Made by a program: the position numbers and the translations under genes. A DNA stretch of 64,000 nt from Lentisphaeria bacterium (lineage in GTDB: Bacteria; Verrucomicrobiota; Lentisphaeria; JABSQK01; JAWLHB01), in contig JAWLHB010000033.1 in the NCBI GenBank assembly GCA_041690595.1, forward strand, positions 1-64,000, in the 5' to 3' direction. A model generated the notes under the pieces. That model was not told the DNA's origin. It searched no databases and saw nothing but the letters and a program-made list of their open reading frames with translations. Shown piece by piece: positions 26,239-52,216 of this stretch; position 1 is the first letter of the stretch, and every line of letters begins with the position of its first letter.

Positions 26239-26388
26239 CCTACCTGGCGCCCGGGCTTGGAGTCATTTCTTCAGGCGCATCTGATGCCATTCTTAACACG
26301 CCCCCTCAGACCCGCCAGACCTTGTCCGAGCTGTCTCCGCGTTCCCGCGTCCCCCCCGGGCAGCCGCGCTCCCCCTCCGCCGCTCGTT

Positions 26389-26422
26389 CTTTGCGATCTT
26401 TGCGATCTTTGTGGTTTATCCT
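26389..26422. repeat. 9-bp-period intergenic repeat (same family as the 47.7-49.6 kb repeats)
   Basis: CTTTGCGAT CTTTGCGAT CTTTGTGGT TTATCCT. Confidence 0.8.
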
Positions 26423-45800: not shown

Positions 45801-47246
45801 TCAACCCTTGATGCACCCAAGCGGCCGGAGCTGCGCGACCTTGCGCGAGATCCCGGCTCCCTCGCAGGTGTCCACCACTTCCGTGACATCCTTGTAAGCC
45901 TCGGAGATCTCTTCGTGCATCGTACGGGAGCTGCTCGCGCGTACCACGATGCCGCGGCGCGCCAGCTCCTGCTGGATCTCTCGCCCCTGGCTCGACTTCT
46001 TCGCCTGAGTTCGGCTCATCGCGCGTCCCGCGCCATGGCACGTGGAACCGAAAGTATTCCGCATGGCCCCTTCGGCCCCCGTCAGGACGTACGAATAGCG
46101 CCCCATGTCCCCCGGGATGAGCACCGGCTGCCCCACTTGGCGATACCGCTCCGGCACATCCGCGTGCCCCGGACCGAAAGCCCGCGTCGCCCCCTTCCGG
46201 TGGACGCAGAGTTCCCGCTCCTTCCCATCGACAACATGCCGCTCCATCTTGGCAATGTTATGCGCAACCTCGTACACCGTGCGCAACGCTACGGTGCGCC
46301 GATCGATCCCAAGGGCGTCCACGAAAGCCTGCCGCGTCCATTCCGCAATCACCTGCCGATTCGCAAACGCGTAGTTGATGCCACAGTTCATCGCGCCAAA
46401 GTAGTGCTCACCCTCCGGCGAGGCTATCGGCGCGCAGCAGAGCTGACGATCCGGCAGCTCGATCCCGTACTTCCGGCAGGCGCGATTCATCGTCGCAATC
46501 GAGTCATCGCAGATCTGGTAACCGAAGCCCCGCGATCCGCAGTGGATGATTGCCGTCACCTGCCCGATCGCCAGCCCGAAGGCCGCGGCGGCTTCATCGT
46601 CATAGATCTCGTGCACATAACCGACCTCCAGAAAATGATTCCCCGAGCCCAGGGTTCCCATCTGGAACTGGCCGCGCTCAAAAGCCTTCGCACTCACCGC
46701 CCCCGGTTCCGCCCCACCGACGCAGCCCCCCTCCTCGATGAAACCCAACTCCTCCTCATCGCCATAGCCATTGGCGATGGCCCACCCGGCGCCGCCATGC
46801 ACGATCTCACGCTGTTGCCGGCCATCCAGCGTCAGCCGCCCCTTCACCCCCACCCCCGTCGGCACACGCTCAAAAAGCGTATCCACCAGCCGCGACAGCC
46901 GCGGCCGCACCTCGTCCACGCTCAAACCCGATGCCATCAGGCGAACGCCGCAGTTGATGTCATAACCCACGCCTCCCGGCGAAACCACCCCGGTCGCCGG
47001 ATCGAAAGCCGCCACCCCGCCAATTGAAAAACCATAGCCCCAGTGGCAGTCAGGCATCGCCAGAGACGCTTTCACAATGCCCGGAAGGTGCGCCACATTC
47101 ATCACCTGCTGTGGCGCATTGTCGGAGCGGATCGCCTCCATCATCTCCGCCGTCGCATAGATGCGTCCGGGCACCTGCATACCCCCTTCGCGGGGTATTT
47201 CCCACATGAACTCGGTCTTTTGCTGCAGCTTGATCCGTTCTGCCAT
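45801..47246 (-). CDS. rtcB: RNA 3'-phosphate/5'-OH ligase
   Basis: MPDCHWGYGF, GYDINCG, GTLGSGNHF, HCGSRG, HNIAK, HRKGAT, PGDMG, CHGAGR and EAYKD motifs. Confidence 0.96.
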   Translation of the reverse strand: MAERIKLQQKTEFMWEIPREGGMQVPGRIYATAEMMEAIRSDNAPQQVMNVAHLPGIVKASLAMPDCHWGYGFSIGGVAAFDPATGVVSPGGVGYDINCGVRLMASGLSVDEVRPRLSRLVDTLFERVPTGVGVKGRLTLDGRQQREIVHGGAGWAIANGYGDEEELGFIEEGGCVGGAEPGAVSAKAFERGQFQMGTLGSGNHFLEVGYVHEIYDDEAAAAFGLAIGQVTAIIHCGSRGFGYQICDDSIATMNRACRKYGIELPDRQLCCAPIASPEGEHYFGAMNCGINYAFANRQVIAEWTRQAFVDALGIDRRTVALRTVYEVAHNIAKMERHVVDGKERELCVHRKGATRAFGPGHADVPERYRQVGQPVLIPGDMGRYSYVLTGAEGAMRNTFGSTCHGAGRAMSRTQAKKSSQGREIQQELARRGIVVRASSSRTMHEEISEAYKDVTEVVDTCEGAGISRKVAQLRPLGCIKG

Positions 47247-47274
47247 GGTCGGGCGGGGGTAGAGGTTACTGCGC

Positions 47275-47691
47275 CTACAGATCGAAGATCACCTGGGCAC
47301 GCCAGCCGCTGGGAAGATGCTCCACCTTCAGCTCATGCCAGGTGACCGCCTTTACTTCAGTATAGATCATGTGACGCTCGAAATCGATCTTTTCGCCATG
47401 CACCATCGCCTTCACCCTCGTCGGCGAGCATTCCGAGAAGCTATAACTCACGTACAGTTCTTCACGAACAATGGAGCGATAGTTCAACTCGCTCAGCCAG
47501 CCGTGCACAAGCTCCTCCACCCCTCCCGCCGTCAGCTCCAGCGGTGCACTCTCCTTGGGCAGAACCTCCCCCATCTCCGCAATGATGGAAAACATCCCCG
47601 CGGCCGCATTCGCCAGCAGCTCCCCCAGCGTCTGCCCATAGGCGATGATCCCCACATCCGCCGTATGCTCCATGATCTCGAAAGTCATCAT
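47275..47691 (-). CDS. Archease
   Basis: EHTADVG at the N-terminus, EVKAVTWH, and C-terminal VIFDL. Confidence 0.93.
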   Translation of the reverse strand: MMTFEIMEHTADVGIIAYGQTLGELLANAAAGMFSIIAEMGEVLPKESAPLELTAGGVEELVHGWLSELNYRSIVREELYVSYSFSECSPTRVKAMVHGEKIDFERHMIYTEVKAVTWHELKVEHLPSGWRAQVIFDL

Positions 47692-47754
47692 CCCCAAACC
47701 TATCCCTCTTCTCCCCTCCATTCAAACCTCCGCCACGCCAGCCACACCAGTTCT

Positions 47755-48119
47755 GCCACAGAGATCTCAGAGCTCCCAGAGGAAAAGACTACAACTATAA
47801 GGCGTTCTCGCGCACCTTGGGCACGCCAAACGCCACTCGCCGAAGTGCACCGGCGTTGGCCGTTGCCACTCCCCGACGCCTGGCCCACATCATTATCCCT
47901 TCACGGTCATGTCTCCGTCCTTCCTGCCCCCCCCGTGCGGCGAGTCTTTGCGCTCCCTGCGCTCTTTGTGGTCAATTCCCTGAGCTGCTTGCGAATGTTC
48001 TAACCGAATCTTGGCGCTCTCTGCGCTCTTTGCGGTTAATCCTCTCAGCTGCTTTTCATAAGCTGCCGACCACCACACCGCCACATCTCCGTGTCTCCGT
48101 GCCTCCGTGGTTCATACCC
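47755..48119. repeat. Cluster of four 8/9-bp-period repeat units, one inverted
   Basis: 47755 GCCACAGAG ATCTCAGAG CTCCCAGAG (inverted); 47946 CTTTGCGCT CCCTGCGCT CTTTGTGGT CAATTCCC; 48010 CTTGGCGCT CTCTGCGCT CTTTGCGGT TAATCCT; 48087 CTCCGTGT CTCCGTGC CTCCGTGG TTCATACCC. Confidence 0.8.
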
Positions 48120-48142
48120 TTCTATCCCTCCCTCGACTCACG

Positions 48143-48607
48143 CTACGGTGCCTCTGTGGAAGCTGGTTTCTCCTTCAAGCTGTCCAAGTACCTCTGTTCC
48201 ATTTTTCGAACGTACTCAACATTATACCAGACGATAATCCTGTTTTCCGGCTCGAACCAATACTCCAAACCACCTTTCATGTCACATAGGACTTGCAGCA
48301 AATGTTCCACTGAAGTGGGCCCATGCACCAGAAAGAACTCATACTCTCCCTCCCAACCTTTTATTGGCAAGAGAGCTGCATCTGGCGCTACATAGATCTT
48401 GATATTGGCTTCTGGATAGACCTTGTTAAAACACTCCTGCATAGCCGCTAGCTTAACTGCGAGTGGCTCAGTTGGAGTCGTTTCCCAAAATGCGATCCGA
48501 CAATACGCCATTAAATGCGTAGACAATCCAAAATCCTTAAGCTCCTCCGCATGGCAACTGAACATAAGATTAATGAGTAAAGCCGGTAAAAGGAAAAAAC
48601 TTCTCAT
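48143..48607 (-). CDS. Hypothetical secreted protein, possible STN/secretin-N0-like domain
   Basis: AAGGAG RBS, signal peptide, SVEHLLQVLCDMKGGLEYWFEPENRIIV; lower GC. Confidence 0.7.
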   Translation of the reverse strand: MRSFFLLPALLINLMFSCHAEELKDFGLSTHLMAYCRIAFWETTPTEPLAVKLAAMQECFNKVYPEANIKIYVAPDAALLPIKGWEGEYEFFLVHGPTSVEHLLQVLCDMKGGLEYWFEPENRIIVWYNVEYVRKMEQRYLDSLKEKPASTEAP

Positions 48608-48721
48608 GAAAGCTCCTTGTATGTGAAGGTACCCTTACCAGATTCTTGGTTCATAGGTATTTTCGCCCTTTGTCAAGCAAGTAGTCGGTAAAGGGCTAAG
48701 AGCTTGTACCTCACATCCCTC

Positions 48722-48761
48722 GCCAACCTTTATGCCCTTCAAGCTCTTCATGGTCCATCCC
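48722..48761. repeat. About 40-bp direct repeat, copy 1
   Basis: GCCAACCTTTATGCCCTTCAAGCTCTTCATGGTCCATCCC; 3 mismatches and 1 gap versus 49591-49631. Confidence 0.85.
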
Positions 48762-48802
48762 TATGCCCCCCAACCGTCGCAGGGCAAGCCAAGCTCTTGC
48801 AG

Positions 48803-49405
48803 TCACCTGTCCCTGAGACGCCTGACTGCCGGAATCTCGGCGACGCCTTCTTCCTCTATTGCGTTCATGACCAATTCCGCCAACCCCGCACTCGACGCGT
48901 TGGAAATGTGCCCTGCGCCCTTGTAGGACTTCGGATCCTCCTCCGGTAGCAGACCAAAGACGCAGTAATCGAGCTCGCGTTCCATGCTCAAACCAAAGAC
49001 GTACGTCTCGTCATCTGAGGAGACAACGGCTTTCACCATAAAATGCACATTAAAATGCTCAACTCCGTGCAGATAATGGTCCCAAGATTGCGTCGATTGC
49101 AGCTCGACCACAAAATCCGTTATCCGCTCTCTGTCAGTGACAACAATCTCTTTCCCTATCGTGAACACATCGTCCCGCCCATAGAAGATCGGTCCCAAAC
49201 GAACTTGGTCGATCGTCTCAGCGTCGACAGCCAGCCACTCGTCATGTATGGCTTTTTTCCTTTGCGACGAAATGCATCCTTCCCATCCTGCAAAGACGAT
49301 ATGCGCCAGCATGGCGAGGAAAACCAACACGAAGATGACAACGACGGTGCGTCTCGACCTGCCTGTCCCTGGAATGGAAGTTTTGCTGGTGCTGCTGCGC
49401 ATCAT
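48803..49405 (-). CDS. Hypothetical single-TM protein
   Basis: RRTVVVIFVLVFLAMLAHIVF anchor; start moved downstream of the predicted promoter. Confidence 0.7.
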   Translation of the reverse strand: MMRSSTSKTSIPGTGRSRRTVVVIFVLVFLAMLAHIVFAGWEGCISSQRKKAIHDEWLAVDAETIDQVRLGPIFYGRDDVFTIGKEIVVTDRERITDFVVELQSTQSWDHYLHGVEHFNVHFMVKAVVSSDDETYVFGLSMERELDYCVFGLLPEEDPKSYKGAGHISNASSAGLAELVMNAIEEEGVAEIPAVRRLRDR

Positions 49406-49469
49406 ATTCTCGCTGCCAGGTGTTGACGCTTCACTCCCGCTGCTCTTTGGATGTTCGGCTATGGCAGGC

Positions 49470-49499
49470 AATATGCCCATCCCTTCCGCTCTTTGTCAA
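49470..49499 (-). promoter_or_regulatory. Sigma-70-like promoter
   Basis: TTGACA-N18-CATATT on the minus strand; a near-identical TGCTTGACAAAGRGCGRAA motif also lies at 48661-48679. Confidence 0.6.
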
Positions 49500-49590
49500 G
49501 CATTCGAAACCATGGATCCTTGGATCGCCATCATCTTCCTCCAGCAGGCCACTGAAAACAACCCGCAGCCGCGATGCGGAACTGGCCCCG

Positions 49591-49631
49591 GCCAACCTTC
49601 ATGCCCTTCCTGCTCTTCATGGTCCAATCCC
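49591..49631. repeat. About 40-bp direct repeat, copy 2
   Basis: GCCAACCTTCATGCCCTTCCTGCTCTTCATGGTCCAATCCC. Confidence 0.85.
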
Positions 49632-49695
49632 GCCGCTCCTCCGCCTCTTCGCCTCCACACCTCAGGTGGCATGACCAGAATCGTTCAATATGCAC

Positions 49696-50406
49696 TCAGT
49701 CGAGGAAGACATCATCAGAAGGTGCTTGAGAGGCATGAGTATTCTTGAGTACCAATTGAGAAAAAAGATGAACCGGTAATATCTCGATCCTACCATCCAA
49801 GTATATAGAAGTAATCCAGTCTCTATTCAAAATTGAATACAGAAGCGGATCATCATATTTGAAGTCCTGCATCTTCCTCCTGTAATTGTATATGAATGGA
49901 AAGGCTCTGCTTGCTAAATAATCGTGCGATACATTTCTATCTATATTGTCATAAGAGAATATTCTTCCTGACAGAGGAATGCTTTGGTCCACGGCTAGAG
50001 TATATATTGACGGCGGCAGATATCCACCATAGGAATCACTGTAGGTATAAATTGCATTGTGAAGCAAAATGAATGTGCCTCTCTCCCTGAATAGAAGTTT
50101 TAAGTCTTGCCTCACAATATAGGATGGCACTAGTATAATTACGCACGCACAAGATGCTATCATATAGTTTGCTCTCTCATGTTTCCTTGCTATCAACAAA
50201 TGGCATAAAGAAACGAACATTATACTCAATGCAACTAGCGGTGCAACAAAGGCCACTGCTCCTGGTGGATAGCTTCTGTGAGTCAATATTGTTGTTCTCC
50301 ACCCAGTATAGGTCCAGATGAACCACAGAAGATTGAGGCAGGATACAACCATTAAGATTCCGCCATCGCTCCTGATGTATCGTAGGCTATTCTTTAAGAA
50401 GTACAT
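49696..50406 (-). CDS. AT-rich 3-TM protein with a degenerate DUF1559/H-X9-DG-like C-terminal domain
   Basis: LHNAIYTYSDSYGGYLPPS and SIYLDGRIE resemble PVC pilin-like bodies. Confidence 0.6.
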   Translation of the reverse strand: MYFLKNSLRYIRSDGGILMVVSCLNLLWFIWTYTGWRTTILTHRSYPPGAVAFVAPLVALSIMFVSLCHLLIARKHERANYMIASCACVIILVPSYIVRQDLKLLFRERGTFILLHNAIYTYSDSYGGYLPPSIYTLAVDQSIPLSGRIFSYDNIDRNVSHDYLASRAFPFIYNYRRKMQDFKYDDPLLYSILNRDWITSIYLDGRIEILPVHLFSQLVLKNTHASQAPSDDVFLD

Positions 50407-51394
50407 CTGCACTTCTCTCATGGTTTGAAATGGAAACATGATAGAGGTAGATATCTTCCAATTCTATTGACGTTTCGATTCCATGATTTACGCCGGGTTT
50501 CAGTGGTAATAGGCTTCTATCCGCCGTCTCCTTCGCGATTTCGTCCCGCCATTGTAAACATGCAGCTACGGAACCAATGCTATCAGAGGCCAATCTCACC
50601 ATGAATCTTTTCCACGTGTAGCTAATGAGATTCTTGTGGACAAAACCTGGATATACGGAATAGCCTTCGGTATCGAGTACGTGCCCGATACGTCGCAACT
50701 TTTTTTGTTCAGCATACAATCGAATGGGACCAGCCGGAAGTTTTTCTTCAATGTCATCCAGAAACGAGCTGCAGAAAGGCCTGCTGAAGGCACGCATACA
50801 TCCCCTGATGGATTGCACCATTGATCTGGTGACGCGGTATCGACCTGCTATCCATATGAAGTCGAAGGAATCTTGAGGACAACGTTCAATGTCCGGTCGA
50901 TGGTACTGCGACCACATCAGTTTGTTGGCAACGACGTGATCATCAAACCGCCACAGTTTTTCAGACAGTGAGTCCGGATTCATCCCGGATGACGCAAGAG
51001 CCTGCACCACAGAATCATGCCGAAATATCAGCGGCATAAGTTCCCTGAGAAGAAGCGTCTCTCGATGAACCTGATGACTGGCGGATTCAAGTACTCTGCG
51101 AGCAATGCCATCGTACGCGATCTCATCCATCCAATCCAATTCTTTCACTGAACGGCTGCGGTTGAGCAGTGTGTGCTTGCAGTGTGATCTGATGCTTAGC
51201 GGAATACGTTGATTGGAACTCTCTGGCCATAGGGGCCAAGGCTCAAAAACGAGATCAGCAGGGTCGTGCGAATTGATCAGACGCGCAAGAGTGGAGCAGG
51301 ATAACCACGCGAGATAGCACAACGGATGAATGGTGCCACGATTATACCAAATCGCGAACTCTCTAAAGGGATACAGGCTATCTAACAGCTCCAT
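50387..51394 (-). CDS. Hypothetical protein (lower GC, no recognisable motif)
   Basis: 335-aa ORF in a region where the other frames are frequently closed. Confidence 0.6.
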   Translation of the reverse strand: MELLDSLYPFREFAIWYNRGTIHPLCYLAWLSCSTLARLINSHDPADLVFEPWPLWPESSNQRIPLSIRSHCKHTLLNRSRSVKELDWMDEIAYDGIARRVLESASHQVHRETLLLRELMPLIFRHDSVVQALASSGMNPDSLSEKLWRFDDHVVANKLMWSQYHRPDIERCPQDSFDFIWIAGRYRVTRSMVQSIRGCMRAFSRPFCSSFLDDIEEKLPAGPIRLYAEQKKLRRIGHVLDTEGYSVYPGFVHKNLISYTWKRFMVRLASDSIGSVAACLQWRDEIAKETADRSLLPLKPGVNHGIETSIELEDIYLYHVSISNHERSADVLLKE

Positions 51395-51766
51395 TAGTGC
51401 TGATCTTTACCGTTCGGCATTTTCAGAATTCTCTTTCACGGTTTTCTTGACGCTCCCGATGAACATTGTCCACAGTACTCGTGGTGACGCGGCCCTCGTG
51501 GTCGCTCCAGATGCCGTCCGTAGCCCACCGCGTAGCGCAGCCGAAGTAGTCGAACTCGGGATTCTCCCGGTAGTCGGTGTGGATGCCACTGGAGAGGTAC
51601 CATTGGCAGAGCGTAGCGCACGAGAAAGGGGATTGCAAGTGCCACAGAGTGTGGATTTAAGAAGATGAGATCCTCTTGATGCGGATATGCTTGCTTTTGC
51701 TGACCGTTAAGCTATCTTCACTGTAGTCGAATGTCCATCATCCGAAATGACCAAACGAGGCCTGAC

Positions 51767-52216
51767 ATGTACAGGCGAGAACTGTTGATGATGCTCGCCC
51801 TCATCCTGGTGGCGACAGCCTGGGGGCAGGAGAGTGGTAATCTGTGGGAACGGCTCTCCAATCGAGAAAGGCGCCCCGACATCGTGAAGGAGAGCGAGCG
51901 ACCGAGGGAGGATCCTGGTGCCATCCCGGTACGTGTCCTCCCCACGCTTTCCGATGAACAGCTGCGGCAGCAGCGGCTGGAAGCCGTGAAGAACGGCTAC
52001 GCCGAAGCTCAGAAGCTCCCTCCATACCTCGATCGCGAACGGGTGCGGGTAATCCGACAGGGTTCCCTCACCGACGAGCGCCGCGCCGCGGTCCACTACC
52101 GCTACGACGCCGATGGCGATGGCGAGCTCGATGAGGTTGAAAGAGCGGTTGCCCGAAAGGCCGCCCACGAGCGGCTGCTCGACTTCATCAAGGAATCGAA
52201 AAACGCCGGGCAGTGA
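51767..52216 (+). CDS. Secreted protein with a single EF-hand-like loop
   Basis: Signal peptide ending ATAWG; DADGDGELDEVE loop. Confidence 0.7.
   Translation: MYRRELLMMLALILVATAWGQESGNLWERLSNRERRPDIVKESERPREDPGAIPVRVLPTLSDEQLRQQRLEAVKNGYAEAQKLPPYLDRERVRVIRQGSLTDERRAAVHYRYDADGDGELDEVERAVARKAAHERLLDFIKESKNAGQ

Follow-up and report, generated by a model that had tools for sequence, protein, structure and literature searches.

A low-GC gene island with dispersed repeat arms and Rhs-gene scraps beside archease-rtcB in a Lentisphaeria genome

The island and its four genes

We analyzed a low-GC (guanine plus cytosine) gene island on a 64,000-nucleotide stretch of DNA from a Lentisphaeria bacterium. 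This whole stretch, G000:C33:1-64000, is called the window; G000 is the genome under study and C-numbers are its contigs, G007 and G010 are genomes of relatives, and X3, X4 and X5 are public sequencing runs. The genome has a size of 8.1 Mb, a completeness of 97% and a mean GC of 61.5%. The island is flanked by archease-rtcB on one side and by a small orphan gene and trkH on the other. It holds four open reading frames (ORFs) on the minus strand, A to D.

50387..51394, minus strand: ORF A, 335 amino acids (aa), no hydrophobic segment, no family
49696..50439, minus strand: ORF B, 247 aa, or 236 aa if translation begins at 50406, with three predicted membrane segments
48803..49402, minus strand: ORF C, 199 aa, N-terminal membrane anchor and small alpha/beta domain (longest frame to 49480; likely start 49402)
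48143..48607, minus strand: ORF D, 154 aa, probable signal peptide

The first-pass annotation of this DNA had described four co-oriented, low-GC orphan ORFs, and their orientation and composition were confirmed. The GC values of A, B, C and D are 0.48, 0.40, 0.53 and 0.45, that is, 0.40-0.53 against 0.615 for the genome. The GC of the island interval is 0.491, and equally low values were found in 8 of 7809 equal-sized genome windows, a count that includes windows overlapping the island. In this study low GC means under 0.54, and genes outside the window were called with our own caller.

The orphan status holds against other lineages and fails within the genome. ORF C has paralogues at C46 (74%) and C18 (73%), and ORF D has one at C12 (78%) within a six-gene low-GC array; C and D are therefore orphans only relative to other lineages. 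ORFs A and B were each found in 0 of 300 other genomes of the phylum, and ORF C in 0 of 400. Pieces of ORF A are present in X3, X4 and X5, and the ESM Atlas gave no match to it scoring above 0.78. A protein search with ORF B matched only itself; B is weakly like the C46 gene behind the promoter-like module P described below (pairwise E 0.005), and after its membrane segments comes a stretch that we take to be pilin-like, with no database hit. For ORF D, its own paralogue was the only other match in the protein database, and clusters resembling the STN domain (score 0.89) are only a lead.

The structural model of ORF C has a predicted local distance difference test (pLDDT) value of 60. Its best fold match is 4r7r, a putative clostridial lipoprotein (Z 8.0, root-mean-square deviation 3.6, 116 residues aligned), so that this low-confidence model may indicate a resemblance to that protein. 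The model of ORF D (pLDDT 57) gave no clear fold match, the best Z being 5.2. The ratio of nonsynonymous to synonymous substitution (dN/dS) between paralogues is 0.27-0.35 (0.27-0.35 for C and 0.31 for D), and we therefore regard C and D as real genes. As a side observation, the C12 array (C12:159584-164277) contains a tandemly duplicated gene besides the D paralogue, with a 57-bp spacer repeat after both duplicates.

Repeat arms, Rhs scraps and a shared promoter-like module

Between the genes lie repeat units, which we call arms, together with promoter-like sequences and scraps of Rhs genes.

49591..49631, minus strand: GxxExxY-type arm, junction subtype, left direct repeat
48722..48761, minus strand: GxxExxY-type arm, junction subtype, right direct repeat
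47945..48115, minus strand: three further GxxExxY-type arms, common genome-wide subtypes
49470..49502, minus strand: module P, promoter-like, TTGACA-N18-CATATT, five homologous copies
48661..48679, minus strand: P', the -35 half of P alone, before D, with no CATATT at the matching distance
49390..49476, minus strand: Rhs-gene scrap 2, which contains P's -10 box and leader and is joined in frame to ORF C
51502..51595, minus strand: Rhs-gene scrap 1, 79% DNA identity in frame to the Rhs gene C79:9397-9493
51610..51638, minus strand: candidate sigma70-like promoter before scrap 1 and ORF A, TTGCAA-17-TACGCT as read from the sequence

An arm consists of three words with a period of 8-10 bp and an ACC start. 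Triple-word units score at 49596-49627, 48727-48758 and 48086-48115, and two more, absent from the first-pass annotation, at 48009-48040 and 47945-47976. All five exceed the reversed-genome maximum and lie on the same strand, and none of them takes the inverted-pair or hairpin form. The periodicity of gene then repeat that had been noticed holds after B, C and D. It does not hold after A, which overlaps the longest frame of B with no repeat between the two, and the unit after D is an 8-bp subtype distinct from those after B and C. The near-identical 40-bp direct repeat was found again at 48722-48761 and 49591-49631 with 90% identity (88% over 41 nt in a second alignment). The composite of arms at 47945-48115 recurs at C6, C22, C39 and C85.

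The units lie 24-65 bp past the three stops, on the coding strand. Such a position would suit regulatory elements kept after genes, that is, operator, terminator or RNA-processing signals, and the segment 48000-48142 folds more stably than all 200 shuffles made of it (z -3.35), into a number of short stems. In contrast, the spacers after B and C fold at chance level (z -0.08 and -0.86), arms elsewhere occur in all orientations relative to genes, and Rfam gave 0 matches. We consider a regulatory role very improbable. Co-oriented low-GC genes with repeated spacers also recall a cassette array of an integron without an integrase (CALIN), in which the attC sites would be degenerate. The first-pass annotation had already set integrons aside, and with good reason. 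Exact core boxes RYYYAAC/GTTRRRY number 0 in all three spacers, no long hairpin follows B or C, and in the 97% complete genome seven tyrosine-recombinase matches were found, none of them above the TIGR02249 cut-off for integron integrases and none on C33. This explanation, already largely refuted, deserves hardly any credence.

The arms belong to a repeat family spread over the whole genome, and this family flanks GxxExxY genes both in the genome under study and in relatives. A pattern generalized from the island units matched 115 times in the genome and 0 times in 3 Mb of order-4 Markov sequence, and position matrices gave 217 non-overlapping arms, 52 of which form inverted pairs under 200 bp. 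The matrix thresholds were set just above the best reversed-genome score, so that this control is empty by construction, and the matrices E9 and T9 drifted to commoner subtypes, leaving their subtype labels loose. A GxxExxY gene, which the first-pass annotation had named as a possible companion, was found: the only PF13366 (GxxExxY) gene detected in the genome, C37:77213-77563, is bracketed by arms, on a different contig from the island. PF13366 is present in 9 of 15 genomes of the order. Twelve GxxExxY loci were fetched out of 21 matches, and 10 of these 12 have at least two triple-word arms no more than about 350 bp away, which was seen in 0 of 150 random windows. In G007 the word variant of the island junction arms flanks a GxxExxY gene. 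Literature searches found no paper on repeats of GxxExxY genes, one paper that mentions GxxExxY in passing, and nothing on repeat-jointed arrays of the island's kind.

Some further arms were seen in passing. In the locus C37:76130-77700, seven tandem arm-bearing units of about 108 bp lie upstream of the GxxExxY gene, and arm hairpin pairs stand on both sides of the gene; further tandem hairpins lie at the end of C37. Within the window, a single GxxExxY-type arm is located at 26388-26419 between two convergent ordinary genes.

The first-pass annotation had taken the repeat for a possible dedicated boundary of cassettes parked at archease-rtcB, and this part is not supported: the arms are mostly not cassette boundaries. 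Among 82 arm-bearing spacers, 63 are flanked by ordinary-GC genes only and the other 19 border on a low-GC gene. An arm at most 150 bp past the stop was found for only 14 of 225 low-GC genes. Most arms thus lie beside ordinary genes, which agrees with a random spread of the repeat, but the excess of arms at low-GC genes is real. Low-GC contact was seen in 19/82 spacers with arms versus 223/2686 without (odds ratio 3.3), and an arm past the stop in 14/225 low-GC genes versus 42/5548 others (odds ratio 8.7). Five short calls overlapping arms were dropped before these counts, and the spacer count omits 13 arms inside called genes and the arms at contig ends. The enrichment has to be read as an upper bound, since a few of the low-GC genes called next to arms appear spurious.

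The shared motif reported earlier, TTGACAAAG, 19 bp in length, was recovered at 48661-48679 and 49484-49502. It has 2 matches at three mismatches or fewer, where 0.07 are expected, and 0 of 100 shuffles had two. The motif is the -35 half of TTGACA-N18-CATATT, and Rhs debris, which the first-pass annotation had missed, explains why it is shared. Seven sites in the genome fit the frame of P at spacings of 16-19 bp; five of them, at C33, C46, C6, C20 and C3, are homologous with a spacing of 18 bp, and a matrix trained on these five found no sixth copy above the control. A low-GC gene follows every one of the five, compared with a base rate of 118/2698 (the copies are not independent). P accompanies the junction arm at three loci and lacks it at the two others. 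P is a putative active promoter.

The stretch 49390-49451 of scrap 2 has 85% identity to C14:162354-162414, a fragment identified as Rhs by PF05593, and the alignment reaches the -10 box, which coincides with codons for His and Ile in the Rhs shell. The -35 box is in frame at a Leu-Thr/Ala/Pro position of the Rhs homologues, where TTG ACA occurs in 1 of 9, and the 27 nt upstream of the -10 box have a fixed-register identity to Rhs of 11-15/27. The -10 box and the leader of P therefore appear to derive from Rhs coding sequence, and the -35 box perhaps does as well. P would then be a promoter-like module made from Rhs codons and reused before five unrelated genes, and a possible route to the expression of orphan genes after loss of the toxin gene. 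Two neighbouring features were also noted. At C14:162380-162450 the Rhs fragment has an in-frame insertion of about 20 codons, absent from most homologues and carried in the P leader. Both other copies of C are preceded by a different shared promoter-like module with TTGACA-17 (C46:8660-8709 and C18:97880-97928).

Permuted copies and the origin of the island

Repeat-mediated shuffling, the central proposal of the first-pass annotation, survives in part: genes, repeat and promoter stand in different arrangements elsewhere in the genome, with a breakpoint at the repeat. The order in the island is B-arm-P-Rhs scrap-C-arm-P'-D, and that at C46 is C'-arm-P-Rhs scrap-gene X. That is, gene C stands here in the order arm-promoter-C-arm, versus C-arm-promoter-other gene at C46, a permutation centred on the repeat. 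Two window tracks match C46, 49653-49390 and 48900-48712, each of them spanning the one arm present at C46 (7905-7936). Compared with that arm, the left arm is similar over the 3' part and the right arm shares the first 12 bases and then diverges, a pattern that would be expected of a crossover early in the arm. At the Rhs/C junction at 49390 the letters AGCA are common to both sides and the frame is kept, and contigs of three of four public runs, from two studies, run along the window up to precisely 49390 and then continue as Rhs.

Both island junction arms, the C46 arm and the C9 arm are mutually closest among the 217 (with one tie with two others), and a model built from these four gave an extra weak copy at C3 (E 0.014). 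The five junction-subtype arms (C33 twice, C46, C9 and the weak C3) have five different low-GC genes downstream and three unrelated gene types upstream, and P at C20 precedes a paralogue of the gene that follows the C9 arm. Weak signs of other joints came from public runs: in X3 a joint, seen on one contig, between the P' flank and the leader of P, and in X5 one contig with arm and linker behind another upstream sequence. A second cassette-like array was noted at C9:99946-101626, consisting of an arm, a low-GC membrane gene, a junction arm, a TTGACA site, a low-GC gene and an arm hairpin.

A passive pile-up has to be weighed against these rearrangements. In that case arms of a selfish GxxExxY element would land in neutral spacers, low-GC islands included, with no repeated shuffling, and the direct repeats around C would come from a one-off duplication and deletion. 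The 63 spacers with ordinary neighbours only, the absence of a clear orientation rule, the 211 of 225 low-GC genes with no arm after the stop, and a second dispersed repeat in the same spacer all fit such an origin. It fits poorly with a junction subtype nearly confined to low-GC junctions, pairing different genes at four loci, and with the behaviour of P, which moves together with this subtype at three loci and apart from it at two others. We think that a passive origin is rather unlikely, yet it must be taken seriously.

A dedicated capture system would go further. In this case GxxExxY nucleases and arms would form an integrase-free cassette system: the nuclease would cut or nick the arms open, arm-bounded genes would be excised and reinserted, and P would be a portable cassette promoter. 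If this were true, a promoter made of Rhs codons would travel with cassettes, and the cell would build arrays of immunity genes with no recombinase. The direct repeats bounding C and the permuted copy elsewhere, the arm enrichment after low-GC stops, the junction word variant at a GxxExxY gene of G007, and the single GxxExxY gene for about 217 arms, comparable to RAYT and REPINs, point in this direction. However, the nuclease gene is on another contig. Around it the arms form inverted pairs, unlike the junction arms, which stand singly and have degenerated. The Rhs/C junction does not coincide with an arm, the majority of arms have no relation to cargo, and the GxxExxY protein is not known to have any activity. 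The part of this protein in the process is hypothetical, and we regard such a system as improbable.

Rhs genes, as well as pieces of them, are numerous in the genome. A low-GC gene follows 14 of the 22 Rhs pieces with a same-strand neighbour, two of these calls being doubtful, and 11 of 19 when the island and C46 are left out. Nine genes from Rhs loci were tested and six had a Pfam match, including two SUKH proteins, one leucine-rich repeat (LRR) protein, and pentapeptide and DUF4265 proteins. SUKH and LRR are listed as immunity families in PMC3482391. The genome also has comEC. By guilt by association we assign A to D a possible immunity role. Further Rhs-linked loci were noted in passing. 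At C5:275000-288000 lies a classical Rhs locus in which four core matches have different tips, followed by SUKH, LRR and pentapeptide genes, and C13:137401-137988 and C14:161404-161961 are paralogous low-GC membrane genes behind fragments of two Rhs types.

Our best explanation, to which we give about half of our belief, is that the island is a polyimmunity-like locus made from relics of Rhs loci and built by host recombination with arms as crossover points. Rhs loci would decay by deletion, leaving a promoter-like scrap before the downstream genes, and P would have arisen inside an Rhs gene and act as a promoter. Units would move and recombine through short shared sequences, the dispersed arms being the commonest of these. 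The unit arm-P-Rhs scrap-C may have been closed by a microhomology of 4-6 bp at the Rhs/C junction. It may then have entered the site by a crossover within the arm, either as a circle or by tandem duplication followed by exchange. A crossover at the arm would yield arm-P-scrap-C-arm, that is, direct repeats around C, and A to D would be immunity-type cargo.

Several points weigh against this explanation. A to D have no match over the cut-off in Pfam, NCBIfam, PHROGs or PADLOC and belong to no recognised immunity family; at the sister loci, 12 of 14 proteins have no Pfam match over the cut-off, and the two matches are not immunity families. None of A to D was found next to an intact toxin, and no sheath gene of a type VI secretion system was found in the 97% complete genome. 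The other two copies of C have a different promoter, with no Rhs scrap detected upstream, and neither arm nor Rhs piece was detected at the paralogue of D. Among 138 low-GC islands, 13 are near Rhs pieces and 15 near arms. For the -35 half an Rhs origin is only suggested, since 14 of 866 further positions in the same ORF agree with the consensus just as closely. The paralogues of C and D are old (dS 0.3-0.44), and the events therefore need not be ongoing. The reliance on our own gene caller outside the window is a further caveat.

Searches in relatives and public data were also carried out. No same-family genome was found among 40 relatives, and in G010, which is too distant to inform, archease-rtcB lies in another context. 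An archease-based metagenome scan confirmed no relative among 77 candidates. The P pattern had 0 matches in public metagenome contigs and 0 in genome contigs, where near relatives are possibly absent. Five public runs hold small shares of the genome, none of them listed as RNA. None of the public contigs spans the island, all being too short, and the absence from them of a joint left by excision between arms therefore carries no weight.

The arms can act as joints where accessory genes change partners. GxxExxY genes are a widespread uncharacterised family, and the island gives a concrete consequence of their repeats.

The remaining features of the neighbourhood are as follows.

45801..47721, minus strand: archease and rtcB, flanking core genes (PF01951, PF01139)
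47803..47902, strand not assigned: second dispersed intergenic repeat, unrelated to the arms, found by BLAST

BLAST gave as many as 90 overlapping hits to the second repeat across the genome, and they often form tandem arrays. At 51731-52216 a divergent orphan of 161 aa looks secreted and has no Pfam or NCBIfam match; it contains an acidic motif that is presumably EF-hand-like.

Comparison with known systems

Because the island has no rAID recombinase, no attC site and no recognised immunity family, we file it in none of the published systems compared here.

The island is like polyimmunity loci and orphan Rhs-CT/immunity modules (PMC3482391, PMC5361080) in its tandem, co-oriented low-GC genes with no intact toxin, in its Rhs debris (two Rhs scraps and no Rhs ORF) and in its apparent assembly by recombination. 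It is unlike them in having no recognised immunity family, in lying away from any intact Rhs locus, and in having dispersed GxxExxY arms, together with a recurrent promoter module, as its joints.

The rAID-1 arrays of Bacteroidales (bioRxiv 10.1101/471110) also have low-GC co-directional genes, repetitive intergenic sequence and an integron-like look, and the island has at least two co-directional low-GC genes with repeated spacers. In contrast to those arrays, there is no XerD-like recombinase at its 5' end: a TIGR02249 query gave no tyrosine-recombinase match on C33, and the upstream neighbours are the small orphan and trkH. Its repeats also belong to a genome-wide family, and its cassettes carry their own promoter modules.

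Two dispersed-repeat systems resemble the arms. The Neisseria dRS3/NIME arrays and minimal mobile elements likewise have a dispersed repeat tied to a mobile-element enzyme, and these repeats are proposed crossover points beside variable surface-protein genes (PMC3898611); the arms differ from them in their unrelated sequence, their non-palindromic triple-word form and a linked enzyme of the PD-(D/E)XK family. REP and REPIN sequences with RAYT (PMC3116915, PMC3337134) share the pattern of one enzyme gene and hundreds of intergenic repeats, some as inverted doublets. Here, however, the flanked gene is GxxExxY rather than an HUH transposase, and the arm is a periodic word array. Four PF01797 (RAYT) matches occur in the genome, none near the arms listed, which do not include all arms at contig ends.

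Finally, the internal rhs promoters of Salmonella (PMC7043789) are like P in that promoter boxes lie within Rhs coding sequence and express, or in the case of P would express, what follows them. P differs in lying mid-shell, not just before the toxin tip, and in that its Rhs gene is lost, and the putative promoter stands at five unlinked sites before unrelated genes.

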